This document shows positions 1,183 to 61,746 of a stretch of DNA of 61,746 nucleotides, in pieces. The notes below the pieces were generated by a model. It ran no database searches and had not been told where the DNA came from. It saw only the letters and a list, made by a program, of their open reading frames with translations. The position numbers and the translations under genes are program-made. Position 1 is the stretch's first letter. Each line of letters opens with the position of its first letter. The DNA is from an uncultured Candidatus Cloacimonadota bacterium (lineage in GTDB: Bacteria > Cloacimonadota > Cloacimonadia > Cloacimonadales > Cloacimonadaceae), in the NCBI GenBank assembly GCA_964482845.1, contig CAYZZE010000001.1, positions 1 to 61,746 of the forward strand. The letters run 5' to 3'.

Positions 1183-4100
1183 ATGCAGATGAAGTGGATA
1201 AATGGACAGATCAATCGGCGGAGCGTCATGTTGCTGGCGCTGCTCATGCTGCTGACCGCGCTGGGCGGCATGGTTCCGCCTCATCCGATGTATCAGGATC
1301 CGCCGGCGCAATTAAAACGGACACAGATCGAAAGAACCGCTCCGTTTGACTTAAAACAGATGCGTAGCATCCCCAATAATATCCTCGTCCTGCGCGTGCA
1401 GTTCAGCGACGTGCATTTCCAGTCCACCCCGGTCTATCCGGATTATCTGGCCCACGATCATGCCTTCTTTGACCGCTGGATGTTGCATCTGTGCGATTTC
1501 TTCTTCGATGCCTCGCACGGGCAATACTCTCTCAATTATTACCTGCCCCAAACGGTTTACACCCTATCCCGGCCGATGGGATATTATGGTGGGGATACCA
1601 GCGAAACCATAGATGCCCGGGTGGAGGAGATGATCGCGGATCTGGTGGTGCTGGCTGATCCCGAGATCAATTTCAATCAGTATGGGGGTTTGATCGTCTT
1701 TCATGCCGGTCCCGGACAGGAATCCGATATCAGCGGGATCAGGCGCGAGCAGATATGGTCAACCTTTATTACCCGCAAAGACCTGCAAGCGGCTTTTGAT
1801 CCTGATAATGACGACTATCCAGGGTTGGTGAGCCCGGATGGGGCGGTTCTCAAGAATATCGTCCTGGTACCGGAAAGCGAATATCAGGATTATTTCCCGC
1901 CGGAAGGTACGCCGGATGCAAGCGTCTATCTATTCAGCATTTATGGAGTATTGACGCATCAATTTGGCCACCTGATCGGGCTACCTACGCTCTTTGATAA
2001 CTTTTCTGCCAACGGACGGTCGCAAGGGATCGGGAATTGGGGACTGATGGGAACCGGCGTTTGGAACGCCAATGGCTACGTCCCGGCTCAACTTAGTGCT
2101 TGGTGTCGGTATTATCTGGGGTGGGAGCAGCCGCTGGTGATCAGTTATGATACGGCCGGTCTGACGGTAAATCACTTTCTGGATCGGACGCCAGGTGCGC
2201 TAAGATTGTATAAAGTCCCGATCTCCGCCCGCGAATATTTCCTGGTCGAGAACCGGCAACAGAATCCGGATGGCAGTTTGGATCCCTATAACAATATGCC
2301 CAGTTTCACTTTCAAACTCCTGCCGGAAGGCGAGCAGGACTATTATGACGATGCGCCTTTGCGGCCGTTCTTTAATTTTATGAAAAACCGGTATCAGGGA
2401 TGTGAGTGGGATTTCTTCCTGCCGGGGCTGGGCGGTCCGCTGCTACCGGGAGAAAATCATCCGACCGAGGGATCCGGGATGCTGATCTGGCATATCGATG
2501 AGAACGTGATCGAGGCGAATTTTGATCCCAACTTCGACAAGAATACCGCCAATGGCAATGCCGCCCACAAAGGGGTTGACCTAGAAGAGGCAGACGGCAT
2601 CCAACACCTTGATACGGCGGTATTTGACTATTACAAGTATGGCGGACCATACGATTCATTCCGGGCTGGAAATAATGACTACTTCGGCAATCAGACGCAT
2701 AACGGACTGCTCCGGCTGCCCACGGCGGAGAGCTATTATGGCGGTATTCCTCTGGAGATCTATGATATCAGCGTATCGGGCAATCAGATGTCCTTTTCGG
2801 TGCGCTTCGACTGGAAGCTGGATACCGGTTACACCGGCATCAATCCCTTTGCGGGATGTGCGGTGGATTTTACCGGTGATGGCGAACACGAGATCTTTTA
2901 TGCTCAGCCGGATGGACAGATCTATATCTGGAAAAACGAACTGCTGATGCCGGGATACCCTCTGGAACTGGATTCGATGACTGTCCATTACGTGTGGGAC
3001 GGCGGGACATTCTATCTCCCGCTGCAAAATCAGAATGCGATCCGACTCTACCGCCTGCGGCATAATAATTCCGGCTATGCACTCACGCTGATCAATCGTA
3101 CTTGGGCTGCAGCTCCCATGGACTGTGGAGAAGTGATTGCCCTGCCTTTGAATAAGACGGATGACTGGCGCAGCGAGATCATTCTCATGAATAAACAAAG
3201 CCAGACGATTGCTGAACGGATCGAGATGAACAGGCGTATTCGTAGCAACCTCGTCTGGGAAAACGGGTCCCTTTATGGATTACATGTCAATCCCATGCTC
3301 AACTATGACCTGTTTTCCTATGATCTTCAAATGGGCACTTACAATGAACTGCCGCTTCCCGTAAGCGCTGATTCGCTGATCATTGGCATCTATCGGGCAC
3401 CGGTCACTCCGGGGGGATTTTACTCGGAGACGATCATCCAGACGCCGCATAGCATCATTATGCTGGACAATCAACGCAATCAAGTTGAGGGCTATCCAGT
3501 GATCCTGCCCTTCAGAACCACGAGTCCATTGACTATCGCTGATGTGGATCGAAATGGCACCCTGGATCTATTGGTCGCTTGCGACAGCACTTTTGCCGTC
3601 TATGACTATGCCGGAAAACTGATGAGTCCGGCGGGACTTAAGGTTCAAAACAGCATTGCTGACGGCAATGGGGGATCGGTGATGGCGCTTGATCTCGATG
3701 GTGACGGCAGGATTGAGTATATTGGCACCTTTGCCCAGAACCGGATGCTCGCCTGGAATGATGATTTCCGAGTCCGAACCGGCTATCCCGTCTCGTTTGG
3801 TGAACGTAGCCGGACGCTGCCGTTCATGGGAAAGGACACGGATAACAGGATATATTTGTATTATTCCTCGGATAATGGCAAGATCTATCGCAAGTATCTG
3901 CCCAATGCCACTATGAACGCTATCAACGGACAATGGTTCACGGAATTTGGAAACCTGCGGCGAACTGCCTTTCGGGGCAGGGATGACCTCAACAATCAGT
4001 ATGCTTCCACGCGCATCTTCGTTCCCGGTGAGGTCTTTGTCTTCCCCAATCCTTACAAGCCCATGTACCGGCGTCAGATGACCCTGCAAGTAATGACCAG

Positions 4101-4325: not shown

Positions 4326-5228
4326 ATGAGATCCTGCTTGATTATTGCCGTCATCCTGATCACGGGAATGACGCTTGGGGCTGAAGTCCACGAAGATTCC
4401 GGCAAATATGGTTTTGCCTTCCTGCAAATGCCGGTCAATCCGGTTAGTATGGCTCTGGGTGGCAGAGGAGCTTTTAGTAATGGTAACCACGCCGCCTTTG
4501 CCTTGCAACCGGCAATGCCCACCGTGGAGGCAAATACGGCGGTGACGGTCAGCCATGCCATGTGGCTGGATGACACCCGCTTTACCACCATCGCCTATTC
4601 CAATTCCAACCGCCGCAATCATTTTGGCTTGCTTTACCGGAATCTGGATTACGGCGAGATCGAGATCCGTGATGATAATGCAGCGCTTATCGGTTACTAT
4701 CGTCCGATTGATCTGGCTATGATCGCCAACTATGGACACCGCATTAGTCCCACTCATTATCTGGGGATCAATGGCGGCTTGATATACGAAAAGATCAATA
4801 CTGCTTCTGCCTATGGCGCGGTCATGGATCTGGGATACACTTTTCTGCCCCCGTTCGTGGATAGCCGCATCTCGCTGGCAGTAACCAATCTCGGCATTTC
4901 CTCAAGGATGAATGAGGAGCGGATGAAACTGCCTGCCACGATGGCAATCGACATCAGCAAAGGATTTGAGATGGATCAAAACCGCATCATATTTGAGGGC
5001 AGCGTGACCAAAGCCGTGGACGATAACTGGAAGGGCGCGGTGAATACCGAGATCGACCTTAATTCGATACTCTTTCTACGTGCCGGATACAAGATAAATT
5101 ATGATGCCGAAAACGTCACAGCCGGTTTTGGCATCCAATGGCGGGGGATTACGGTGGATTACGGCTGGTCCCCATTCACCAGTCAATTGAACGATACCCA
5201 CTTTCTTGGCATAACCTATTCTTTTTGA
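4326..5228 (+). CDS. PorV/PorQ-family-like outer-membrane beta-barrel protein
   Basis: Signal peptide MRSCLIIAVILITGMTLGA. The FLQMPVNPVSMALGGRGAF motif resembles the N-terminal PorV/PorQ signature. Alternating beta-strand pattern with C-terminal ...LGITYSF. SD ggagga lies 5 nt upstream of ATG 4326. Confidence 0.55.
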   Translation: MRSCLIIAVILITGMTLGAEVHEDSGKYGFAFLQMPVNPVSMALGGRGAFSNGNHAAFALQPAMPTVEANTAVTVSHAMWLDDTRFTTIAYSNSNRRNHFGLLYRNLDYGEIEIRDDNAALIGYYRPIDLAMIANYGHRISPTHYLGINGGLIYEKINTASAYGAVMDLGYTFLPPFVDSRISLAVTNLGISSRMNEERMKLPATMAIDISKGFEMDQNRIIFEGSVTKAVDDNWKGAVNTEIDLNSILFLRAGYKINYDAENVTAGFGIQWRGITVDYGWSPFTSQLNDTHFLGITYSF

Positions 5229-10322: not shown

Positions 10323-10475
10323 TGTATTCTCCTTCGTGACCGAACCAGCCGGTGCCCTTGCTCCAAGCCGTCATCTTCAACCGACGATTCTCCTGAGCAA
10401 GCCCCTTGATCCGCTCGGGCATGTGTTTTTTTACAGATATGATAGGCGGCAACGATCTCTTGGCAAGCTATTTGT

Positions 10476-10738
10476 CCTCCTTGCTTGATAACCTTAGTAT
10501 AACCTTACGACCGTAAGGTTATACTAAGGTTATGGAGCAGGAAGAACCCAGGCGGAAACACAGTCAGCTGGAATCTGGTCCTTCTCGAGACGGGTGAACA
10601 ATTCACAGCGATTGACATTACTGCTATATGCAAACCATCTGCCAGACATAATCCGATGTCATAAGGGGCTGCGCTGGAATGGAGAGACAGTATGTTATTT
10701 TCACGTTCCCGATATTTTGAGATTCCAGTATGTTAAAC
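10476..10738 (-). repeat. Composite intergenic repeat, copy 1 (inverted orientation, diverged)
   Basis: Hairpin core at 10488-10533 (ataaccttagtataaccttac gacc gtaaggttatactaaggttat) with one 11-nt unit per arm. The downstream 200 nt align by eye to the reverse complement of copy 2 (e.g. aaaccatctgccagacataatcc vs aaactatctgacaggcataatcc, and ctgcgctggaa shared). Confidence 0.8.
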
Positions 10739-10792
10739 GCTCTTCCACAAAAAAAGTCCTTGCATGGAACACTATTTGCGTTATCCTGTCAT

Positions 10793-15138: not shown

Positions 15139-15174
15139 ATAGGCAGTGATATCTGCAATTAGATTTCAAAGTGC

Positions 15175-15482
15175 GTTGCACATACGGGAATCACCATATT
15201 TTGAGACCGTGAAAAACAAAATCGTCGCTCCTTCCAGCGCAGTCAGTATTAGCTAAGGATTATGCCTGTCAGATAGTTTGGATACTCGTTGAGTCAACCG
15301 CTCCGAGTTGTTTAACGGTCTCAAGAAGGTTTAGATTCAAGCGGAATAGTGCTTTCTCCTGCATTCTCCCTGCTTCATAACCTTAGTATAACCTTACGGT
15401 CGTAAGGTTATACTAAGGTTATACTAAGGTTATCAAGCAAGGAGGATAGTTAAGTCAACTCTCTGATTTATTCAACGGTCTT
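15175..15482 (+). repeat. Composite intergenic repeat, copy 2 (reference copy): modules M1-M2-hairpin-M3
   Basis: M1 is gttgcacatacgggaatcacc... (15175-15260). M2 is ggattatgcctgtcagatagtttgg...ctcctgcattc (15258-15364). The hairpin spans 15365-15446 (left arm has one aaccttagtat unit, right arm has two atactaaggtt units, loop ggtc). M3 is tagttaagtcaactctctgatttattcaacggtc (15447-15482). It lies between convergent genes. Confidence 0.85.
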
Positions 15483-15554
15483 TTCCGATGTCACCTTCTC
15501 GCTTGGGGTTTCAGTTTTGCCCATTTGATCTCGTTGTGCAGGCTTTTGCGCCCC

Positions 15555-21959: not shown

Positions 21960-22189
21960 CCCTTGTTTGACTATAGTCCTCCTTGCTTGATAACCTTAGT
22001 ATAACCTTAGTATAACCTTACGACCGTAAGGTTATACTAAGGTTATGAAGCAGGGAGAATGCAGGAGAAAGCGCTATTCCGCTTGAATCTAAACCTTCTT
22101 AAGGCAGTTGCATGATTCAGAGCGGTTGACTCCATGGTCATATATACGCCTTCTGTCAGGCAAGACCCGGTGTCTTAACATTGCTGCCG
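21960..22189 (-). repeat. Composite intergenic repeat, copy 3 (inverted): M3-hairpin-M2 part
   Basis: Hairpin at 21977-22058 (two aaccttagtat units on the left, one on the right, loop gacc), which is the reverse complement of the copy 2 hairpin. The following gaatgcaggagaaagcgctattccgcttgaatctaaaccttctt is the reverse complement of the M2 3' part. Confidence 0.85.
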
Positions 22190-22432
22190 GATGTTAGGCG
22201 GTAACTTCCATCACCGTCCGGAACGCCGCCAACGATCAACCAGCAAGGGTATCCGGACTTTGGGAGGACTTTAGTCCGGGAGAAATCCCCTCTCGCCGGT
22301 CAGGCCTCATTCTTTTAATACGCTGGCATATGTCTCTCGTTCGGACAGAAGTCCTCTCAACGTCTAAAAACCCAGTAGGGTTGTATGTACTCTCACGATC
22401 CGAAACGGTGGTTGAAACCACCGCCTAACATC
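22190..22432. repeat. 243-bp segment bounded by a 12-bp perfect inverted repeat (gatgttaggcgg / ccgcctaacatc), nested in repeat copy 3; candidate MITE or structured RNA
   Basis: Termini at 22190-22201 and 22421-22432. Several internal hairpins (ggtggt-ttca-accacc, ccggact...agtccgg, ggac-ttct-gtcc on the minus strand). Only the 60-nt end (22376-22432) recurs, at 52580-52640. Confidence 0.45.
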
Positions 22433-22562
22433 TGATGGCGCTGGAAAACTTATTATAAAGACCGTTGAATAATCAGCAACACCGGATTTATCCGGCACCC
22501 AGCACGTTTGCCCAGATGTCATAAACAAATGTCATACAAGCATATAGATTTTACCATGCACC

Positions 22563-22700
22563 GACTGAAGTCAGTGCAACGACCGGCTGAAGCCAGTGCA
22601 ACGACCGGCTAAAGCCGGTGATACACCTATGTGCAACGGTCTTTTATATTGCGTTCTCTCGATCTTAATCTCTGGTGAGCCCATTATGTGCAATGGTCTC
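22563..22700 (-). repeat. M1-type repeat modules (two, inverted), including a 22-nt tandem duplication
   Basis: Tandem units agtgcaacgaccggctgaagcc (22573-22594) and agtgcaacgaccggctaaagcc (22595-22616), then ggtgatacacctatgtgcaacggtc. A second M1 runs to atgtgcaatggtctct (22686-22701). Their reverse complements match 61690-61746 and 52495-52560. Confidence 0.7.
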
Positions 22701-23334
22701 TAAAATACAAATTTACAGGATCATTCGTGATAAAAAAACCTGATAGCTGGCAAGAAAAAAGGCGGTTTGGGAGAGAATGCCCTTCTCTGGTGATTGACTC
22801 TTTGACAGAATTGGTTCGAGGAATATCCTGCAGTGCCGTATTATCAGAGGCATCGGAATCCTCCTTTACAAACTGCACCGGAGTGCTATGCGGCAGATGA
22901 CCATGGCTCCCTTGGATAATCTATCCTCAGTTCATCCAGCGACGTCCATATCCTGGTCTCGATCAAGAATTGGCAAAAATTCATTTGACAGAAACAGTAC
23001 TGCCGTCCCTTTGGACTGTTGTAGTAAATAGTGAAAGAGATGATTGAAAAGCATGATGATAGATACATACCCAAGGGAGCGATACCTCATCCTGGTCAGC
23101 ACGATTCTGCTATTCGGTAGAGTGATTATGACGATTGACAATCTGGTGACACCTGCACCAATGTAGATATTGACATTGCCATCACGATCATAGTACCGGG
23201 GTGGCAATATCCATCTCTGGATGCAGCGCTGGTTCGTTGTTACGCATAAGCGACGGGGCGAAGCTGTATCGTATAATGTTGATCACTATAATGGCGAAAT
23301 GGAAGCCAAATCAGCCAAGTGAGGAGGGTTTATC

Positions 23335-34662: not shown

Positions 34663-35122
34663 TCCACGAATTACACGCATTGGCACAAATTGTCATAGAG
34701 TGTTATGAATAGCCCGGAACTACTTTACAAAGAAGAGTGTTACAATATAATCGGTGCATGTATGACAGTGCATCGAGAAATGGGTAATGGTTTCCTTGAA
34801 TCAGTTTATCAAGAAGCCCTGGCAATCGAACTGGAAAATCGTAGGATACCCTATAAGAGGGAGAAAGTGATCAATGTATCGTACAGGGGCATTGATTTAA
34901 AGTCAACTTTCAAAGCTGACTTTGTTTGTTATGAGGAAGTAATTGTCGAAGTCAAAGCACTGAGTTTACTAAGCAATGATCATACTTCTCAAGTAATTAA
35001 CTATCTAAAAGCAACCGGATTAAGAGTCGGTTTGCTGGTCAACTTTGGCACATCAAGTTTACAACACCATCGCTATGTGCTCTAAACCTTTAGTAATCTG
35101 TGTAATTAGTGTAATTCGTGGA
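34663..35122 (+). mobile_element. GxxExxY cassette A: mini-gene boxed by inverted arms of gtgtaatt-type 9-nt units
   Basis: Perfect 14-bp inverted repeat tccacgaattacac (34663-34676) / gtgtaattcgtgga (35109-35122). The arms extend imperfectly to about 32 nt (34663-34694 and 35092-35122), with 9-nt phasing tagtaatct|gtgtaatta|gtgtaattc|gtgg. Mobility is not demonstrated. Confidence 0.45.
34705..35085 (+). CDS. GxxExxY protein (PD-(D/E)XK nuclease fold, PDDEXK_3-like)
   Basis: 126 aa. GFLESVY matches GxxExxY. ADFVCYEEVIVEVKA gives D...E.K. The C-terminus QVINYLKATGLRVGLLVNFG is typical of the family as I recall it (TIGR04256). Confidence 0.8.
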   Translation: MNSPELLYKEECYNIIGACMTVHREMGNGFLESVYQEALAIELENRRIPYKREKVINVSYRGIDLKSTFKADFVCYEEVIVEVKALSLLSNDHTSQVINYLKATGLRVGLLVNFGTSSLQHHRYVL

Positions 35123-43982: not shown

Positions 43983-44066
43983 TGGTTGTATCATGATTAC
44001 TTCACATCAGAATCCATCAAAATGATAAAGTAGCAAAAATCCTTATAAGTGACCAGTTTTCCTGCG

Positions 44067-44149
44067 TCCTCCCTGCTTGATAACCTTAGTATAACCTTAC
44101 GGTCGTAAGGTTATACTAAGGTTATACTAAGGTTATCAAGCAAGGAGGA
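44067..44149 (+). repeat. Stand-alone copy (4) of the 82-nt hairpin, inside a co-directional operon
   Basis: tcctccctgcttgat-aaccttagtat-aaccttac-ggtc-gtaaggtt-atactaaggtt-atactaaggtt-atcaagcaaggagga. The outer stem is fully complementary here (cttgat/atcaag). Only about 25 nt of M2-like sequence lie upstream, and there is no M1 or M3. Confidence 0.85.
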
Positions 44150-44189
44150 TAAGGGTAGGTAAAGGGAAAAAGGAACAAAACGAGATAGC

Positions 44190-49697: not shown

Positions 49698-50711
49698 ATG
49701 TTTAACAACAAGATTATAATGATCACCGGCGGCACCGGCTCTTTTGGCAATACCGTGCTCAATCGTTTTCTGGATACCGGAGTAAAAGAGATCCGGATAT
49801 TCAGCCGGGACGAGAAAAAACAGGATGATATGCGCAAAGATTACCGGAATGACAAGATCAAGTTCCATTTGGGTGACGTCCGTGATTATGACAGCGTGTT
49901 CAATGCCATGCAAGGGGTGGACTATGCGTTTCATGCCGCAGCCCTGAAGCAAGTGCCATCCTGTGAGTTCTTTCCGGTGCAGGCGGTCAAGACCAATATC
50001 CTCGGTGCCGAGAATGTGATCAGGGCTGCCATTGCCAATCAAATCAGCAAAGTAATCGTTCTTTCCACCGATAAGGCGGTCTATCCGATCAATGCCATGG
50101 GTATGTCCAAAGCGCTGATGGAAAAGGTAATGGTGGCTTATTCCCGGCAGCAGCCAGATAATGGGACTGTCCTCTGTGGGACGCGTTATGGCAACGTAAT
50201 GGCATCACGTGGTTCGGTCATACCGCTTTTTATCGAACAGATCAAGGCAGGTAAGCCCATTACTATCACCGATCCCGACATGACGAGGTATCTGATGTCG
50301 CTGGAAGAAGCGGTGGAATTGGTTGTGTATGCCTATCAGAATGGAGTGCAGGGTGACATCTTTGTCCAAAAATCGCCGGCATCCACGATCCAAGACCTGG
50401 CACAGGCACTTATCGAACTATTTCATGCCAATACTGAAATCCGCATCATTGGTACCCGGCATGGAGAAAAGAAACACGAGACGCTGATCAACCGGGAAGA
50501 AATGGCAAAGGCAGTTGACCTCCCGGGTTACTTTCGGATTCCCGCTGATACACGTGACCTGAACTATGACAAATACTTCAGCAATGGTGAAGCTAAGGTC
50601 ACTGAAATCGAGGAATACACATCAGAAAATACGTACCGCCTCAGCATCCCGGAGATTAAGGAGAAACTGCTATCTCTTCAGTATGTGAGAGACGAACTGG
50701 GTTCCAACTGA
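49698..50711 (+). CDS. fnlA: UDP-GlcNAc 4,6-dehydratase/5-epimerase (FnlA/CapE/WbjB)
   Basis: Near-collinear identity with the remembered S. aureus CapE sequence: ITGGTGSFGN, EIRIFSRDEKKQDDMR, HAAALKQVPSCEFFP, CGTRYGNVMASRGSVIPLFI, ITDPDMTRYLMSLEEAVELV, GTRHGEKKHETL. Confidence 0.93.
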   Translation: MFNNKIIMITGGTGSFGNTVLNRFLDTGVKEIRIFSRDEKKQDDMRKDYRNDKIKFHLGDVRDYDSVFNAMQGVDYAFHAAALKQVPSCEFFPVQAVKTNILGAENVIRAAIANQISKVIVLSTDKAVYPINAMGMSKALMEKVMVAYSRQQPDNGTVLCGTRYGNVMASRGSVIPLFIEQIKAGKPITITDPDMTRYLMSLEEAVELVVYAYQNGVQGDIFVQKSPASTIQDLAQALIELFHANTEIRIIGTRHGEKKHETLINREEMAKAVDLPGYFRIPADTRDLNYDKYFSNGEAKVTEIEEYTSENTYRLSIPEIKEKLLSLQYVRDELGSN

Positions 50712-50725
50712 GAATATTTATCTGA

Positions 50726-51157
50726 CACCACCGAGGACACTGAGAACACCGAAAATGATTTTCGAAAAGGACTTGAGCGATAAGATAATTGGTTGTGCCA
50801 TTGAAGTTCATAAGCAACTTGGATCCGTTTACATGGAGAAACTTTACGAAAAAGCCATGCTGATAGAGCTTTCAGAAGCAGGACTCAAAACGAGAAACCA
50901 AGTTCCAATTCACGTGGTATTCAAGAATCATGTTATCGGGGACTACATACTTGATATTGTTGTCGAGGATAAAGTAATTCTTGAACTCAAAGCGTGTTCA
51001 AAAATAATCCCTGTGCATGAGGCTCAATTGATTCAATATCTACATACGTCAAAGTACAAAATAGGTTACATTATCAATTTTGGCAGTAACTATAAACTAG
51101 AGTTTGTTAGGAAAGTACTATGACGGTTTTCTCGGTGCTTTCGGTGTTCTCGGTGGT
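50726..51157 (+). mobile_element. GxxExxY cassette B: mini-gene boxed by inverted arms of caccgag-type 9-nt units
   Basis: The left arm at 50727-50754 reads accaccgag|gacactgag|aacaccgaa|a. The right arm at 51127-51157 has the reverse complement accaccgag|aacaccgaa|agcaccgag|aaaa. The left arm abuts the ATG, and the right arm ends 10 nt before the fnlB ATG. Mobility is not demonstrated. Confidence 0.45.
50755..51123 (+). CDS. GxxExxY-family protein (PD-(D/E)XK fold), variant first motif (VYMEKLY)
   Basis: 122 aa. LDIVVEDKVILELKA gives D...E.K. QLIQYLHTSKYKIGYIINFG tail. The Gly of GxxExxY is displaced by two residues. Confidence 0.8.
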   Translation: MIFEKDLSDKIIGCAIEVHKQLGSVYMEKLYEKAMLIELSEAGLKTRNQVPIHVVFKNHVIGDYILDIVVEDKVILELKACSKIIPVHEAQLIQYLHTSKYKIGYIINFGSNYKLEFVRKVL

Positions 51158-51166
51158 TAAAACAAC

Positions 51167-52402
51167 ATGAAAAAGAGAATTGGTATTACCGGACAGGCAG
51201 GATTTATCGGCACTCACCTGTACAACACCCTCGGCTTGTCCGGAGATCGTTTTGCAAGAATTTCCTTTGAAGACGGTTTCTTCTATTCGGAGGGATTACT
51301 GGATGATTTTGTTCGTAAGTGCGATGTGATCGTGCATCTGGCAGCCGTCAACCGTCACGCTGAGCCAGAAGTTCTCTACAAGACAAATATCGAATTGGTT
51401 CGCAAGCTGATAGCATCAATGGATAGGAATAAGGTTTCACCGTATGTCATATTGAGTTCTTCATTGCAAGAGGAAAGGGACAACCTCTATGGCAGGTCGA
51501 AAAGGGAAGGCAGAGAACTATTTAATCAGTGGGCGGATAGAACGGGTGCAAGTTTCAGCGGATTGATCATCCCCAATGTCTTCGGTCCCTTTGGGGTGCC
51601 GTATTACAATTCCGTGATATCGACCTTCTCTCACCAGATAGTGATTGGAGAAGAACCAAAAATAGAAGTGGATGCCGAACTGAAGTTGATCTATGTGGGT
51701 GATCTGGTGCAACGGATCATTTGTTTAATTGATAGTTACACCGATGTGACGGATAAAACGGATCAATACAGATTTATGACCGAAAGGACAACCACCGGGG
51801 ACACCGAAAACACCGAAAGTAATTCTCAATTCTCAATTATCAATTATCAATTGAACAAGCCGGAACGGCTTATCCAGGTTGAACATCAAGCGGTTTGTAA
51901 GGTGTCGGATTTATTGGCTAAGTTACTTGGATTTCATGGCGAGTATGTAGAAATGGGTGTTTTTCCTGATCTCAGAGATTATTTTGACGTATGTCTGTTC
52001 AATACTTTCCGTTCCTATCTGCCAGTGTCATTTTTCCCCCGACCCTTCAAAGTGAATAGCGATGATCGCGGCGTATTTGTGGAGGTGATGAAATACAGAT
52101 CCGGTGGGCAATCGTCCTATTCGACGACCAAACCGGGCATTACGAGGGGCAACCACTTCCATATCCGAAAAGTTGAACGATTTGCCGTGATCAAGGGCAA
52201 GGCATCCATCAAACTGAGAAAATTGGGGACAGATCAGATCATCGACTATCAGATCGACGGATCACAACCAGCGTATGTGGATATACCAGTGTGGTTTACA
52301 CACAACATCACGAACATGGGTGATGAAGAACTGGTGACACTATTTTGGATAAATGAGTTCTATGAACCACGTGACCCCGATACTTACTATGAAGAAATTT
52401 GA
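51167..52402 (+). CDS. fnlB: Bifunctional SDR + cupin enzyme of L-FucNAc synthesis (FnlB/CapF/WbjC) with an extra linker of about 37 aa
   Basis: N-terminal ITGQAGFIGTHL, VHLAAVNR, YGRSKREGE. C-terminal cupin DDRGVFVEVMK...KPGITRGNHFH...VDIPVWFTHNITNMGDEELVTLFW parallels S. aureus CapF. 411 aa against about 369 aa. Confidence 0.88.
   Translation: MKKRIGITGQAGFIGTHLYNTLGLSGDRFARISFEDGFFYSEGLLDDFVRKCDVIVHLAAVNRHAEPEVLYKTNIELVRKLIASMDRNKVSPYVILSSSLQEERDNLYGRSKREGRELFNQWADRTGASFSGLIIPNVFGPFGVPYYNSVISTFSHQIVIGEEPKIEVDAELKLIYVGDLVQRIICLIDSYTDVTDKTDQYRFMTERTTTGDTENTESNSQFSIINYQLNKPERLIQVEHQAVCKVSDLLAKLLGFHGEYVEMGVFPDLRDYFDVCLFNTFRSYLPVSFFPRPFKVNSDDRGVFVEVMKYRSGGQSSYSTTKPGITRGNHFHIRKVERFAVIKGKASIKLRKLGTDQIIDYQIDGSQPAYVDIPVWFTHNITNMGDEELVTLFWINEFYEPRDPDTYYEEI
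51791..51848 (+). repeat. Solo B-type arm plus heptamer tandem array, in frame inside fnlB/capF
   Basis: accaccggg|gacaccgaa|aacaccgaa|ag (51791-51819) is a paralog of the cassette B left arm. It is followed by aattctc aattctc aattatc aattatc (51821-51848). The tract translates as TTGDTENTESNSQFSIINYQL. Confidence 0.75.
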
Positions 52403-53015
52403 TTACCACCGAGAACACCGAGTTCACCGTTGCTATCTTCAGGATGCAATGTTGAAGACAAAAAGGTGTGTTATGCGACCCAAAGTTATCAAATAGAGAC
52501 CATTGCACATGTTGGGGTCACCGGATATTGAGATTATGAAATCGTGAGAAAGCAATATCATCTGCCTCCCTGCGTCATTGGATGTTAGGCGGTGGTTTCA
52601 ACCACCGTTTCGGATCGTGAGAGTACATACAACCCTACTGCGGATCTTCTGGGGATTATGCCTGTCAGATAGTTTGGCTACTCGTTGAGTCAACCGCTCT
52701 GAGTTATCTAACGGTCTCAAGAAGGTTTGGATTTAAGCGGAATAGTGCTTTCTCCTGCATTCTCCCTGCTTCATAACCTTAGTATAACCTTACGGTCGTA
52801 AGGTTATACTAAGGTTATACTAAGGTTATCAAGCAGGGAGGATAGCTCTAAGTCAACTCTCTGAGTTGTTCAACGGTCTTAATTAGTTTGTCAGATAAGG
52901 ATTTGTAAGTTTAACAGTTAGCTATCAGTTATGAAATCGAACGCCGACATAGCAATCCGCTACCAGTCGTATTTATGTTTGATGTTTCTCGGAACTTTCG
53001 GTGTTCTTGGTGGTA
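52403..53015 (+). repeat. B-type inverted arm pair with no GxxExxY gene between the arms
   Basis: The left arm ttaccaccgag|aacaccgag|ttcaccg (52403-52429) starts directly after the fnlB stop. The right arm at 52985-53015 has the reverse complement taccaccaag|aacaccgaa|agttccgag|aaa. The interior is occupied by composite repeat copy 5. Confidence 0.7.
52495..52883 (+). repeat. Composite intergenic repeat, copy 5 (M1, 60-nt end of the nested element, M2, hairpin, M3)
   Basis: M1 is agagaccattgcacatgttggggtcaccgg... (52495-52578). gatgttaggcggtggtttcaaccacc...ccctactg spans 52580-52640. M2 spans 52653-52760. The hairpin spans 52761-52842. M3 spans 52843-52883. Confidence 0.85.
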
Positions 53016-53035
53016 GTTATCGCAAAGGAAATTAA

Positions 53036-54151
53036 ATGTTAAAAGTAATGACTGTTGTCGGTACGAGACCCGAGATCATCCGGCTCTCAAGAGTGATGCC
53101 ACTTTTGGATCGGTACACCCGCCATATCCTGGTGCATACGGGACAGAACTACGATTACGAACTCAATCAGATATTCTTTGAAGATCTGGAATTACGTCAG
53201 CCTGACTATGTCTTGAACGTAAATACAACATCCTTGGGGCATGTTTTGGGGGAGACACTTATCAAGATCGAAGATGTCGTGGATAAAGAAAAACCGGATG
53301 CAATGCTGATCTTGGGCGATACCAATGCCAGCATCGCCGCTATCATGGCAAAACGCCGGCACATCCCGATCTATCACATGGAAGCCGGTAACCGCAGTTT
53401 TGACGAAAATGTGCCGGAGGAGATCAATCGCCGAATGATTGATCATATCGCCGATTTTAACCTCGTCTATACGGAAAACTCCCGGCGACATCTAATATCT
53501 GAGGGCTTACCGCACCGGCGCATTTACCTGACCGGTTCTCCGATGAATGAGGTCATTTCCTATTATCGACACAAGATTGAAAGATCCAACGTCTTGGAGG
53601 CATTGCAACTTAAGACAAAACAGTTCTTTCTGGTATCTGTACATCGGGAAGAGAATGTTGACAATCCGGAAAACCTGCATCAGATCATTGATGTCCTGAA
53701 CCAGTTGATACAGAAGTATAACCTTCCGGTGATAGTCAGCACACACCCAAGAACCCGAAAGCGACTTGAGTCACTCAATTCGATCAACCCTGACTCGCAA
53801 ATCAAATTCCTCAAGCCCTTCGGGTTCTGTGACTATAACTTCCTGCAGATGAATGCTCTATGTGTGATATCGGATAGTGGGACGATCAGTGAGGAGAGTT
53901 CAATCCTCCGTTTCCCAGCGATCACCATCAGAAATTCCATGGAGCGTCCGGAAGCAATTGATGCCGGGACTATCATTCTCAGCGGTTTCAACACCGATAT
54001 AGTGCTGGATTCTGTTGCTTTAGCAATGGATGAGCAAGCCAGGTGTGATAGAATCTGCCCCGAATATCAGGTTAGCAATACTTCCCACAGGGTTCTGAAA
54101 CTGATCCTTGGAACTGCGAAACTCCACAAGCAGTGGAGCGGGCTTAATTAA
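53036..54151 (+). CDS. fnlC: UDP-N-acetylglucosamine (UDP-L-talosamine-type) 2-epimerase, non-hydrolysing (FnlC/CapG/WbjD)
   Basis: MLKVMTVVGTRPEIIRLS, GDTNASIAA, HMEAGNRSFDENVPEEINRRMIDHI, SDSGTISEE. Third gene of the FnlABC set. Confidence 0.88.
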   Translation: MLKVMTVVGTRPEIIRLSRVMPLLDRYTRHILVHTGQNYDYELNQIFFEDLELRQPDYVLNVNTTSLGHVLGETLIKIEDVVDKEKPDAMLILGDTNASIAAIMAKRRHIPIYHMEAGNRSFDENVPEEINRRMIDHIADFNLVYTENSRRHLISEGLPHRRIYLTGSPMNEVISYYRHKIERSNVLEALQLKTKQFFLVSVHREENVDNPENLHQIIDVLNQLIQKYNLPVIVSTHPRTRKRLESLNSINPDSQIKFLKPFGFCDYNFLQMNALCVISDSGTISEESSILRFPAITIRNSMERPEAIDAGTIILSGFNTDIVLDSVALAMDEQARCDRICPEYQVSNTSHRVLKLILGTAKLHKQWSGLN

Positions 54152-57961: not shown

Positions 57962-59553
57962 AACATAAGATAACCCAATACACGCTGCTTCTCCTCGATA
58001 TCCTGATCGTGGTTTTTGCCTTCCTCTTTATTGCCAAGATCAGTACGGGCACAGTGAGGATCCTGGCACGTTACAGCAGATCACTGATCCCCTTTACCAC
58101 CATCTGGATCTTTACATCCATAATAGGCGGAAAATACTCGTTCAAGACGCTGTGTTCCGGATTTGAGTATGTCCGCCGTCTTTTTTTGTGCAACACAACT
58201 GCAGTGGCGATCATCTTGGGATTGATCTTTTTTGGCAAGTTCCATTATTCGCGCTACGTCGTGTTCAGCACGATCCTCGGCGTTTCCGTCATTGAGTTGT
58301 TTCTCTTCACCGGCATCTATTATGCCTTCCGGTTTAACCGGGAAAACGCCAGTTATGCCTCCACCCGCCTGGTCACGCGTTCCGATGCTCTGGAAGACCA
58401 GCAGATGCCCCGTAATATCCTGGACGGGGACAAGCAGGTGCCCGTCCTCAGCAATGGCGCATACATACCACCATTCTCCAACGATACGGAGGAGGATGCT
58501 GTGCTGGTTCCCTTATGGCGCAAACATCTACAGGACGATGAAGCGCTCTTTGATTTCATCATTGATTACATCGATCTAACCCGATTCCAGGCTTCAAAGA
58601 CATACATCCTCAATAGCGAGACCTACTACAATATTAAGAACGAGCCGGAAAACAGCCGCCAGATATTTATCAACCTCCATCGCATCAATGATCTCCGGCG
58701 GCTAAATCTTTATTTTATTCGGGTAAATGAAATGCTGATGCCGGGAGGAGTGTTCATTTGTCGCGGACAGACGACCACTGAGCGGCGCAATCACTTTTTC
58801 CGCCGTTATACTCCATATCTCGGGGTTTTTCTCTATGGTATGGATTTCGTTATCCGGCGGGTATTCCCCAAGTTGCCCATCTTGCAGGGCTGGTATTTTG
58901 CCCTGACCAAAGGCAGAAACCGTGCCCTATCCGAGACCGAGATGTTGGGTCGTTTCTACTATTGCGGCTTTGAACTGATCCACAAGCGTGAGATAGACGG
59001 GCTGATGCATTTCATTCTCAGGAAAGTGCACGCGCCCAGCACCAATCCCAATCCTACCTACGGTCCTCTTATCCGGCTGAAGCGCATCGGTAAGGACGGC
59101 AAGGTGATCTATATCAAGAAGCTCCGCACCATGCATCCCTATTCGGAATACTTGCAAGATTATGTCTTCAAAACCAGCGCCTTGCAAGAGGGTGGCAAGT
59201 TCAAGGACGATTTCCGGGTCACCAAGTGGGGTGCTTTCCTCCGCAAGCTGTGGATCGACGAATTACCGCAATTCATCAATTTCTTCCGCGGGGATGTGAG
59301 TATGGTGGGTGTCCGTGCTCTCAGCGAACACTACTTCAACCTCTATCCCAAAGACCTGCAAGAACTCCGCATGAAAGTCAAGCCGGGACTCGTGCCACCA
59401 TTCTATGCCGATATGCCAAAGACCATTGAAGAGATTGTCGATTCCGAACGGCGATACATCCAAAGCAAACTGCAAAAGCCCTTCTCCACCGACTGGAAAT
59501 ATTTCTGGAAGGCCTTGTGGAATATCCTCTTCAAACATGCCCGGAGTAATTGA
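57958..59553 (+). CDS. Polyprenyl-phosphate glycosyl-1-phosphate transferase (bacterial sugar transferase, WbaP-like) with an extended central domain
   Basis: N-terminal TM helices. C-terminal ...KKLRTM...DFRVTKWGAFLRKLWIDELPQFINFFRGDVSMVG... is the Bac_transf core. 531 aa. Confidence 0.8.
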   Translation: MKHKITQYTLLLLDILIVVFAFLFIAKISTGTVRILARYSRSLIPFTTIWIFTSIIGGKYSFKTLCSGFEYVRRLFLCNTTAVAIILGLIFFGKFHYSRYVVFSTILGVSVIELFLFTGIYYAFRFNRENASYASTRLVTRSDALEDQQMPRNILDGDKQVPVLSNGAYIPPFSNDTEEDAVLVPLWRKHLQDDEALFDFIIDYIDLTRFQASKTYILNSETYYNIKNEPENSRQIFINLHRINDLRRLNLYFIRVNEMLMPGGVFICRGQTTTERRNHFFRRYTPYLGVFLYGMDFVIRRVFPKLPILQGWYFALTKGRNRALSETEMLGRFYYCGFELIHKREIDGLMHFILRKVHAPSTNPNPTYGPLIRLKRIGKDGKVIYIKKLRTMHPYSEYLQDYVFKTSALQEGGKFKDDFRVTKWGAFLRKLWIDELPQFINFFRGDVSMVGVRALSEHYFNLYPKDLQELRMKVKPGLVPPFYADMPKTIEEIVDSERRYIQSKLQKPFSTDWKYFWKALWNILFKHARSN

Positions 59554-59554
59554 T

Positions 59555-60072
59555 GTTCTCGCAGATTGTCGCAGATGATTTATAGAACGCAGATAGCGCA
59601 GATTCCATAAGGATGAGAGGTTAAAGTGACTGAGAATGAGATTGGCTATAAGATAAGAGGTGCCTGCTTTTCGGTTTATAATACACTGGGACCGGGATTA
59701 CTTGAAAGCACTTATGAGAAAGCACTTTTTTTGGAACTTATTTCAGGATGCAATGCCAAGACACAAGTCGCATTGAACCTTACCTATAAAGAAAAGCAAA
59801 TTGATAGTGCATATCGAATAGATTTGTTGGTAGAAGATAAAGTGATTGTTGAGATCAAATCCATCGAGTCACTAATGCCAATCCACCATAAACAATTGAT
59901 CACTTATTTAAGGCTATCGGGACTGAAACTTGGTTATCTGGTTAACTTCAATACAACCGAACTTGATAAGAACATACATAGATATGTTAACCAACTCTAA
60001 TCCTAGTAGTTACTCCATTCATTCCTTGCGCCGATCTGCGTCTTTTCAAGATCTGCGTAAATCTGCGAGAAC
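59555..60072 (+). mobile_element. GxxExxY cassette C: mini-gene boxed by inverted arms of about 48 nt built from cgcagat units
   Basis: The left arm spans 59555-59604 (gttctcgcagattgtcgcagatgatttatagaacgcagatagcgcagatt, four cgcagat units). The right arm at 60026-60072 has the reverse complement gttctcgcagatttacgcagatcttgaaaagacgcagatcggcgcaa. The left arm starts 1 nt after the upstream stop. Mobility is not demonstrated. Confidence 0.45.
59626..60000 (+). CDS. GxxExxY protein (PD-(D/E)XK fold)
   Basis: 124 aa. GTG start with SD gagagg. GLLESTY matches GxxExxY. IDLLVEDKVIVEIKS gives D...E.K. QLITYLRLSGLKLGYLVNFN tail. Confidence 0.8.
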   Translation: MTENEIGYKIRGACFSVYNTLGPGLLESTYEKALFLELISGCNAKTQVALNLTYKEKQIDSAYRIDLLVEDKVIVEIKSIESLMPIHHKQLITYLRLSGLKLGYLVNFNTTELDKNIHRYVNQL

Positions 60073-61173: not shown

Positions 61174-61290
61174 TTCATGAATAAAACTCCTCTACATCGT
61201 CTCATCTTCATCGTCTTGTTATCATTACCCCTTCTGGCATCGGGCATTTTTGACCGGAAGACCCTCTCCATCGAATACTCTACCAAGCGC

Positions 61291-61600
61291 GTTGCACATA
61301 CGGGAATCACCAAATATCGAGAACGTGAAAAAACAATAGCGTCTTTCCTTCCAGCGCAGTCAGTAATAACTAAGGATTATGCCTGTCAGATAATTTGGAT
61401 ACTCGTTGAATCCCCCGCTCTGAGTTATTCAACGGTCTCAAGAAGGTTAGATTCAAGCGGAATAGTGCTCTCTCCTGAACGCTCCCTGCTTCATAACCTT
61501 AGTATAACCTTACGGTCGTAAGGTTATACTAAGGTTATACTAAGGTTATCAAGCAAGGAGGATAGTTGTAAGTCAACTCTCTGAATTAGTCGACGACCGT
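61291..61600 (+). repeat. Composite intergenic repeat, copy 6 (M1-M2-hairpin-M3)
   Basis: gttgcacatacgggaatcaccaaatatcgagaacgtgaaaaaac... is collinear with copy 2. The hairpin spans 61481-61562. M3 is tagttgtaagtcaactctctgaattagtcgacg. Confidence 0.85.
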
Positions 61601-61689
61601 TTGCCGTATGTTACCAAGATGGCGGGGAACTGGATGCCTGGAAGGTCTTGGAAACTATGGAGACCCACCGTCGTTTCGGGGAAGGACTG

Positions 61690-61746
61690 ACCAAGACCGT
61701 TGCACATAGGGGTATCACCGGCTTCAGCCGGTCGTTGCACTGACTT
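61690..61746 (+). repeat. Partial M1-type module running off the window end
   Basis: accgttgcacataggggtatcaccggcttcagccggtcgttgcactgactt is the reverse complement of 22566-22641 minus one 22-nt unit. Confidence 0.7.

Follow-up and report, generated by a model that had tools for sequence, protein, structure and literature searches.

We describe a stretch of 61,746 nucleotides (nt) from an uncultured Candidatus Cloacimonadota bacterium (GenBank assembly GCA_964482845.1, contig CAYZZE010000001.1, positions 1 to 61,746 of the forward strand; hereafter the window), with a focus on short tandem repeats that lie in frame inside its fnlB gene, which encodes an enzyme with a short-chain dehydrogenase/reductase (SDR) domain and a cupin domain. 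The gaps between fnlA and fnlB and between fnlB and fnlC are each filled by a hairpin-flanked cassette (B and C, respectively), and we observe that repeats inside the gene belong to the same family as the arms of such cassettes. Arm-derived modules are found at the same loop of FnlB in more than 100 mainly Cloacimonadota-type orthologs. The features of the locus are as follows.

49698-50711: fnlA-like gene (Polysacc_synt_2), flanking fnlB
50727-50752, plus strand: left arm of cassette B (consensus scan)
50755-51123, plus strand: cargo of cassette B, a GxxExxY protein (PD-(D/E)XK, PF13366 / TIGR04256) of 122 amino acids (aa)
51128-51157, minus strand: right arm of cassette B, the inverted partner invoked in a proposed inversion
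51167-52402, plus strand: host gene fnlB, a CapF/FnlB/WbjC-like bifunctional enzyme (SDR and cupin) of 411 aa (Pfam and PDB 2zkl match)
51737-51865, plus strand: whole in-frame repeat-derived insert, aa 191-233, about 38 aa beyond CapF and the empty-site orthologs
51740-51766, plus strand: module 1, three ACSGATNNN units (ACCGATGTG ACGGATAAA ACGGATCAA), translated TDVTDKTDQ (regex scan)
51791-51819, plus strand: module 2, a full-length left-arm copy of three CACCGRNNN units, translated TTGDTENTES (consensus scan, shuffles)
51821-51852, plus strand: module 3, a heptamer array of 4.6 AATTMTC units, translated NSQFSIINYQL (Tandem Repeats Finder, shuffle control)
52405-52430, plus strand: left arm of cassette C, 2 nt past the fnlB stop codon
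52985-53014, minus strand: right arm of cassette C
53036-54151: fnlC-like gene of 371 aa (Epimerase_2), flanking fnlB

Repeat modules in fnlB and the cassettes around it

The host gene has the domain order of the FnlB/CapF/WbjC family, with an N-terminal SDR (Pfam Epimerase, aa 7-193) and a C-terminal cupin (Polysacc_synt_C, aa 297-407), and it stands in an operon with FnlA-like and FnlC-like genes. The 411-aa open reading frame (ORF) matches Staphylococcus aureus CapF (PDB 2zkl) at E=1e-67, and several of its homologs bear the JGI name UDP-2-acetamido-2,6-beta-L-arabino-hexul-4-ose reductase. CapF is a two-domain enzyme in which the cupin performs epimerisation and the SDR reduction (PMC5393024). 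The NCBIfam equivalog NF047837 matches fnlB below its cut-off (228.7 bits versus 500), and the match comes in two pieces because the insert splits it.

Module 2 (ACCACCGGGGACACCGAAAACACCGAAAG) agrees with the 26-nt arm consensus without a mismatch. With up to three mismatches allowed, the consensus has four sites in the window (50727, 51132 on the minus strand, 51791 and 52405) and none in 100 dinucleotide shuffles. In ungapped comparison, module 2 is identical to the left arm of cassette B at 25 of 29 positions, in the same orientation, and to the reverse complement of the right arm at 24 of 29; the corresponding values for cassette C are 20/29 (left) and 21/29 (right). Module 3 consists of two AATTCTC units followed by two AATTATC units (51821-51848), which Tandem Repeats Finder extends to 51852 (period 7, 4.6 copies, 96% matches), and it likewise has no match in shuffles. 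A first-pass annotation of this DNA had reported modules 2 and 3 as a close paralog of the cassette B left arm followed by a heptamer array, and its reading of both holds, including under the statistical test of the likeness to the arm. It had missed module 1; the repeat type of this module makes up the two arms of a GxxExxY cassette in a related locus (L011; 2518-2541, plus strand, and 2968-2991, minus strand) as well as loop modules in L010 and L011 (L numbers denote related loci, P numbers homologous proteins).

The whole insert measures 129 nt, about 114 nt more than an empty loop; between conserved anchor blocks, the loop is 147 nt long in the window versus 33 nt in L001 and L005. HMMER aligns residue 189 of the query with CapF 185 and residue 265 with CapF 223, so that the segment between them is 38 aa longer than in S. 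aureus, very near the 37 aa that had been estimated. Codon 209 of the ORF begins at 51791, and the translation from there, TTGDTENTESNSQFSIINYQL, is free of stop codons, as the first-pass annotation had also noted. This conserved open frame suggests that the insert is translated. The further idea of that annotation, that a 9-nt unit makes such insertions frame-neutral, covers only part of the picture, as units of 7 and 10 nt occur and are translated as well. We detected no internal cargo ORF (PF13366 or PF05635) in the in-gene segment, which is part of the fnlB reading frame, and no significant self-complementarity of the window's loop DNA (fold z = -1.6; z = +1.0 for the loop of L004). The only pairing partners of the in-gene arm are arms of other cassettes outside the gene.

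With respect to protein structure, the AlphaFold2 model of FnlB (mean predicted local distance difference test score, pLDDT, 80; predicted template modelling score, pTM, 0.80) has pLDDT values below 50 only at residues 199-228, with flanks of about 84-96 in 10-residue blocks. This stretch lies between a helix (177-196) and two strands (235-245), after which come helices (246-282) and the cupin strands from about residue 296. The insert is therefore predicted by the model to be a disordered loop in the connector region. Placement at the domain boundary was correct only in part, since the insert adjoins the Pfam Epimerase match (7-193) at its C-terminal end but is followed by about 60 structured residues before the cupin and does not sit at the immediate domain junction. 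As in proteins that carry Rickettsia palindromic elements, the predicted position is a surface or unstructured one that is compatible with the fold. We also considered a fusion of once-separate SDR and cupin genes across a cassette, and rejected it because the fused short-loop architecture is the family's general state; the position of the insert, away from the domain junction, contradicts it as well.

Cassette B (50727-51157) is built of CACCGRNNN arms around a GxxExxY ORF and is one of three GxxExxY cassettes in the window, each with its own inverted arms of about 9-nt periodicity. The other two lie in the polysaccharide gene cluster, with TTACAC-type arms at 34668-35118 (TIGR04256; ccacgaattacac... 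/ ...gtgtaattcgtgg) and GCAGAT-type arms at 59553-60072 (TIGR04256; cgcagattgtcgcagat... / ...atctgcgtaaatctgcgag). Cassette C (52405-53014) has inverted CACCGRNNN arms like those of cassette B and no ORF; its cargo is a copy of a non-coding repeat family, and therefore the arms can enclose non-coding cargo. In L010 to L012, too, the cassette arms are inverted repeats, and there the small ORF between them belongs to the PF13366 or PF05635 family. PMC3424549 lists PF13366 as a family of unknown function, and in the searchable literature on GxxExxY, PDDEXK_3 and intervening sequences with inverted repeats we found neither an account of the cassette arms nor one of copies of them in coding regions.

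Between the cargo of cassette B and the upstream cargo of L012 (2557-2934), identity is 73%, and both are CACYGAG-armed. The window cargo at 59626-60000 is 59-60% identical to the upstream cargo of L010 (2568-2945) and to a downstream fragment in L012 (4506-4706), which are themselves 74% identical, and all three are GCAGAT-type armed. The remaining GxxExxY cargo pairs are 31-53% identical, with the top values coming from short alignments to the L012 fragment. Judged by these sequence comparisons, arm type co-varies with cargo lineage and the cassettes are coherent units, which suggests that they move or get replaced as such. Furthermore, the fnlA/fnlB junction holds different cassette lineages in different genomes, which speaks for insertions or replacements that have recurred at the same sites.

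Three further arrangements were seen in related loci. In L012 (2451-2530), the fnlA stop codon lies within a repeat of the GCAGA type (tacgcagataa), which passes straight into the left arm (CACTGAG) of the cassette that follows; genes therefore overlap arm repeats at their 3' ends, too. In L003 (4160-4250), from a Bacteroidales genome, a mini-hairpin with ACGAAT/ACGGAT-type arms (…cacggattggaatatccgcgaaaatccgtttaatccgcg…) and no ORF stands between fnlB and fnlC, and it is of the small type that could insert in frame. In L087 (1889-2614 and 336-809), we observe a stretch of about 700 nt made of many arrays with a 10-nt period in alternating orientation (CACAGAGTAC / AAACTCTGTG), which resemble several stacked mini-hairpins without an obvious cargo gene.

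The same loop in orthologs

For comparison with close homologs, we aligned the 120 best matches of FnlB (62-86% identical, 372-434 aa), of which those with names are mostly Cloacimonetes or Cloacimonadota. Across this alignment, the loop is pieced together from a small set of peptide modules: FPADNADLGADFAD; YTDLTDRTD..HGL; TENTENTE / TEGTEGTE; TEEHRGAPKSTD; and SQFSILNSQL(ERSD). The DNA of five loci reveals what lies behind them, namely tandem GCAGATNNN, ACGGATNNN, CACYGAGNN units and AATTCTC heptamers. The CACCGAG repeat also occurs with a 10-nt unit and then rotates through all three frames (TEEHRGAPKSTD); since the repeat is read in other frames here, the loop modules originate at the DNA level. 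The types GCAGAT, ACGGAT and CACYGAG (with 9- or 10-nt units) that make up the loop modules also serve as arms of GxxExxY cassettes in the same loci. The loop of L012 opens with 'tttcccgcagatcacgcagaaaaaaacgcagatta', which is nearly the left arm 'tttcccgcagataacgcagaaaaaaacgcggattacgcagat' of the cassette just downstream of fnlB, and continues with ten copies of CACTGAG, the arm type of the upstream cassette, while the ACGGAT loop module of L011 matches its upstream cassette arms. The heptamer-encoded peptide SQFSILNSQL recurs in about 50 homologs, and the heptamer array itself is seen in the DNA of L004 and L010.

L004, the closest relative (86% identical), shares both the arm and the heptamer, and the insertion is therefore older than the split between the two. 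Between them, the insert is 64% identical at the amino acid level versus 89% for the rest of the protein. The Cloacimonadota loci L001 and L005 (65% identical) have a loop of only 11 aa, LVDESSSRQRC, and no cassettes between fnlA, fnlB and fnlC; this short loop is the empty state. These two orthologs thus lack the insert, which L004 has. Empty and filled alleles are only 65% identical at the amino acid level and too diverged to define junctions (terminal repeats, target-site duplication). In a loop-masked tree, genes with a short loop branch from among those with a long one, and therefore gain or loss has been repeated.

Turnover is also visible among very similar alleles. Loop length differs by at least 3 aa in 55 homolog pairs that are at least 95% identical outside the loop, with whole modules replaced in some, as in P0013 and P0042, which are 96.1% identical outside loops that read YTDFTDRTDLHGL... 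and FPADNADCCADHAE..., respectively. The number of CACTGAG copies ranges from three to ten among close relatives. Gain, loss, expansion and replacement of modules thus run much faster than change in the rest of the protein, and the frame is kept, with no stop codon in any of the roughly 30 inserts examined at the DNA level. With respect to orientation, all 12 loop arrays are sense, compared with 8 sense and 6 antisense arrays elsewhere.

The wider comparison covered 80 metagenome loci with identities of 51-64%. Most have loops of 9-20 aa, and about 15 have other repeat-derived inserts at exactly this loop. Complete in-frame mini-hairpins occur here in the distant orthologs L053 (z=-10.9), L031 (-7.9), L027 (-4.4) and L046 (-4.1), and the loop of L078 holds 4.9 tandem ACGAATT heptamers, translated RITNYELRITN. 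Other lineages have in-frame repeat inserts with 7-10-nt periods in FnlC, a UDP-GlcNAc 2-epimerase, at about three loop positions (for example QPLNPSTTQPFNASTLQPLNP and DHPSPITHHPSPITH). Together with the distant FnlB inserts, those in FnlC show that the phenomenon is general. The FnlC genes with inserts are the following.

L003, 4174-5517: FnlC with insert
L050, 4450-5655: FnlC with insert
L090, 4914-6203: FnlC with insert
L061, 3765-5072: FnlC with insert
L031, 4694-6007: FnlC with insert
L087, 2635-3864: FnlC with insert
L069, 4598-5635: FnlC with insert

One homolog, P0015, is a mosaic, with an N-terminal half 95-97% identical to the P0023 group (P0023/P0014) and a C-terminal half 96% identical to P0009; the switch point falls inside the heptamer-encoded SQFSI|VNSQL module, and the protein represents either real recombination at a shared repeat or a metagenome assembly chimera. 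We dropped the idea of the loop as a recombination hotspot, as a breakpoint scan (maximum chi-square over triplets) placed other breakpoints elsewhere and many of its calls were artefacts of the partial protein P0112. A k-mer test gave strong matches between loop and own-locus arms in L012, L015, L011, L019 and L076 that were equally strong to related loci, and it did not demonstrate local gene conversion between the loop and own-locus arms. A protein search for other hosts with the concatenated module peptides, a low-complexity query, returned nothing at E<=0.001.

Origin of the insert and competing explanations

The absorption of repeat DNA of the cassette family into a coding region, which the first-pass annotation had proposed, is upheld by the arm paralogy and the empty-site orthologs L001 and L005, and it is an old, shared and ongoing event rather than a private insertion. 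The reading that we favour, with a probability of about 70%, is that 51791-51848 represents two of three adjacent arm-type repeat modules in a surface loop of FnlB and that these modules are selfish or neutral repeat DNA that is translated. Arm DNA would enter the loop as ORF-less mini-hairpins, or through ectopic recombination or template switching with cassette arms, and would persist because the loop tolerates a hydrophilic peptide rich in T, E, D and N. Selection would pass only the sense orientation and stop-free frames, and the tract would afterwards change through replication slippage and exchange with other arm copies. The insert would then be no dedicated switch and would be comparable to Rickettsia palindromic elements. 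Kinship with the arm families, the open frame, the empty site, the turnover of modules and the predicted disorder of the loop are shown by the data, while how the DNA entered, that it is translated and that it is neutral are inferences.

Several observations weigh against this account. The evidence for translation of the insert is the conserved open frame. The solo arms in Cloacimonadota are all sense (the 12 arrays above) and have no inverted partner in the gene, which insertion of hairpins does not readily explain. Among the cassette arms of the loci fetched, none is of the heptamer type, and in the k-mer test the loop modules were no closer to the arms of their own locus than to those of related loci. 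Finally, pairing of the in-gene arm with either of the adjacent right arms is predicted to be as strong as that of the cognate arms, which makes an RNA-level role possible.

Such a role is the likeliest alternative, although we consider it improbable. In a polycistronic fnlA-fnlB-fnlC transcript, the in-gene arm would compete with the cognate left arms for the right arm of cassette B (upstream) or C (downstream), and the long double-stranded RNA stems would alter RNase III processing or the translation of fnlB. The predicted duplex of the in-gene arm with the B right arm reaches -47.1 kcal/mol, compared with -44.8 for the cognate B pair, and that with the C right arm -40.3 kcal/mol, compared with -40.9 for the cognate C pair, against a background of about -18 to -19 +/- 4 kcal/mol in shuffles. 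In L011, a solo CACCGAR right arm 3' of fnlB (4468-4491, minus strand) finds its sole partners within the gene. RNase III is the enzyme that performs the cleavage of the Coxiella intervening sequence. There is precedent in hairpin-flanked elements with a small ORF that are excised from 23S rRNA, such as the Coxiella intervening sequence (PMC4990558). But L004 keeps the in-gene arm without CACCGAR arms upstream, in L010 a complementary arm is missing from the 3 kb on each side, and near-identical alleles have exchanged module types, which fits poorly with a tuned pairing.

The loop might instead be a selected protein feature, an acidic, Thr-rich and flexible segment kept for solubility, spacing or partner binding, with the likeness to the arms being secondary. 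The invariable conservation of frame and sense orientation (12/12 arrays) and the presence of a long loop in nearly all close homologs would fit such a role. It is nevertheless quite unlikely given that empty-loop orthologs are nested in the same clade, that loop composition, length (11 to 68 aa) and repeat reading frame differ among near-identical alleles, and that module 2 shares 25 of 29 nucleotides with a non-coding arm.

Only slightly less credible, and likewise very unlikely, is slipped-strand phase variation, in which gain or loss of a 7-nt unit would frameshift FnlB before the cupin and make the gene a contingency locus for surface polysaccharide. The 4.6 copies in frame have a unit of 7 nt, a length not divisible by three, L010 has four perfect AATTCTC units, and the 9-nt unit does vary in copy number among close relatives (CACTGAG, three to ten). 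Moreover, among long simple-sequence repeats, tandem heptamers are the most abundant kind in most bacterial genomes, for which polymerase slippage may be the cause (Mrazek 2007, as summarised in PMC4679880). The tract in the window is imperfect, though, with two plus two identical units, the module is of near-constant length in about 50 homologs (SQFSILNSQLNKP), and we observe no frameshifted allele in about 30 insert-bearing loci or 120 homologs, sources that are biased toward intact ORFs.

The first-pass annotation had also proposed that recombination between the in-gene arm and the right arm of cassette B inverts 51158-51790 and so switches N-acetyl-L-fucosamine (L-FucNAc) synthesis off and on, and of this the opposed pair itself is real (51132-51157, minus strand, and 51791-51816, plus strand; 24 of 29 positions identical, one copy on each side of the 5' part of fnlB), but the switch is scarcely believable: the longest exact run of the pair is 11 nt, below the roughly 20-30 bp that RecA-dependent exchange usually needs; Pfam scans of the ORFs in 44-59.5 kb reveal no recombinase, invertase or integrase and only polysaccharide-synthesis families; L004, the closest relative, lacks the pair and has different arms on its fnlA-fnlB cassette, and L010 offers no complementary arm within 3 kb; the same arm type lies both direct and inverted around the gene, so that recombination would equally delete or scramble fnlB; and all related contigs fetched have the gene in intact orientation. 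Control of L-FucNAc synthesis by inversion is thus unsupported, and there is no phenotype to infer from it. A scan of 50600-53100 for promoter and terminator consensus sequences gave no excess over shuffles, and no tRNA genes were found.

Beyond the favoured reading of translated, tolerated repeat DNA, we put forward a broader proposal that we regard as speculative and rather doubtful. At least three cassette lineages are represented among the arms in the FnlB loop, and the hairpin-flanked GxxExxY / four-helix-bundle cassettes with their short-period arms may constitute a hitherto undescribed class of elements that move or recombine in Cloacimonadota and phyla close to it. They would repeatedly colonise the same gene junctions (fnlA/fnlB and fnlB/fnlC) and the same permissive loops in enzymes of polysaccharide synthesis. 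The FnlB loop would then be an active exchange site visited by at least three cassette lineages, and in-gene arms could pair with nearby cassettes into alternative stems of RNA or DNA. Protein-coding palindromes are reported to be a feature peculiar to Rickettsia (title of Ogata et al. 2002, listed in PMC10969869); a mobile class of this kind would extend them to other phyla and tie them to a candidate nuclease cargo.

If the favoured reading is right, a conserved cytoplasmic enzyme would have a hypervariable, repeat-encoded loop drawn from the arms of small hairpin cassettes, which would provide a clear non-Rickettsia case of repeat DNA translated inside housekeeping genes. The loop could also be a natural marker for the spread and exchange of GxxExxY and intervening-sequence-type cassettes. 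For annotation, the low-complexity peptides TENTENTE, YTDLTDRTD, FPADNADL and SQFSILNSQL in these phyla would have to be read as translated arm repeats, which split profile hidden Markov model matches below equivalog cut-offs.

Known systems and further repeats in the window

The fnlB insert is a case of in-frame insertion of a repeat element, a known phenomenon, and what sets it apart is that it is built from GxxExxY cassette arms and has an unusually fast modular turnover. The nearest parallel is the Rickettsia palindromic element, a repeat that is inserted in frame in many genes (reviewed in PMC10969869). Like these elements and like in-frame insertions of miniature inverted-repeat transposable elements (MITE) and enterobacterial repetitive intergenic consensus (ERIC) sequences, the fnlB modules are multi-copy non-coding repeats that stand in frame in a housekeeping or metabolic gene, probably translated and apparently compatible with the fold. 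The likeness extends to orthologs without the insert, which exist for fnlB, and to the distant FnlB inserts (L053, L031 and others) that are complete palindromes. In contrast to the Rickettsia elements, which measure 100-150 bp and encode a conserved peptide, the units in fnlB are tandem repeats of 7-10 nt that elsewhere form inverted arms around a GxxExxY ORF, and the window's copy consists of solo sense arms without a palindrome (fold z = -1.6). Several arm families also pile up at the one FnlB loop and are exchanged between alleles that are at least 95% identical, and the host phyla differ.

Intervening sequences in 23S rRNA with an S23p (four-helix-bundle) ORF, such as that of Coxiella (PMC4990558), share with cassettes B and C the flanking hairpin, and the in-gene segment is a paralog of the arms of the latter. 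Unlike intervening sequences and GxxExxY cassettes, the in-gene segment has neither a cargo ORF nor a partner arm inside the gene and so is not itself a cassette; moreover, its place is within the coding region of an mRNA, and not in rRNA or in an intergenic gap. Long bacterial simple-sequence repeats and tandem heptamers (Mrazek 2007 as summarised in PMC4679880; GGGNATC, PMC4692102, and the Calothrix heptanucleotides cited there) are comparable in that the 7-10-nt units are mostly intergenic and variable in copy number and that units in multiples of three are preferentially tolerated in coding regions. The arrays described here differ in being matched inverted pairs around a cargo gene, of a type that co-varies with cargo lineage, and their coding copies are mosaics. 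Invertible switches and simple-sequence contingency loci share with fnlB the inverted repeats around part of a surface-polysaccharide gene and an in-ORF tandem repeat whose unit is not a multiple of three, but fnlB has no recombinase nearby, its inverted repeat is short, imperfect and unconserved, and among the loci examined there are neither alternative orientations nor frameshifted alleles.

The non-coding repeat family that supplies the cargo of cassette C is intergenic, with a core of about 330 nt that grows to about 750 nt with inserts. Its copies in the window are the following.

10468-10760, minus strand: non-coding repeat copy
15150-15500, plus strand: non-coding repeat copy
21960-22720, minus strand: non-coding repeat copy
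44040-44180, plus strand: non-coding repeat copy
52480-52900, plus strand: non-coding repeat copy
61266-61620, plus strand: non-coding repeat copy

A further copy lies at the end of L004 (4440-4481). All copies have in common a long, near-invariant palindrome (ATAACCTTAGTATAACCTTACGGTCGTAAGGTTATACTAAGGTTAT, with 2.8 copies of TAAGGTTATAC). Rfam searches (whole window at the gathering threshold, 52380-53040 in E-value mode) returned no real family and only chance matches of miRNA precursors to the long palindrome, and the family could be a MITE-like element or a structured RNA. One copy is adjoined by a 22-nt tandem repeat (ACCGGCTGAAGCCAGTGCAACG, 2.8 copies; 22560-22643), to which the right-hand end of the window (61693-61746) is a 54-nt inverted match with 94% complementarity.

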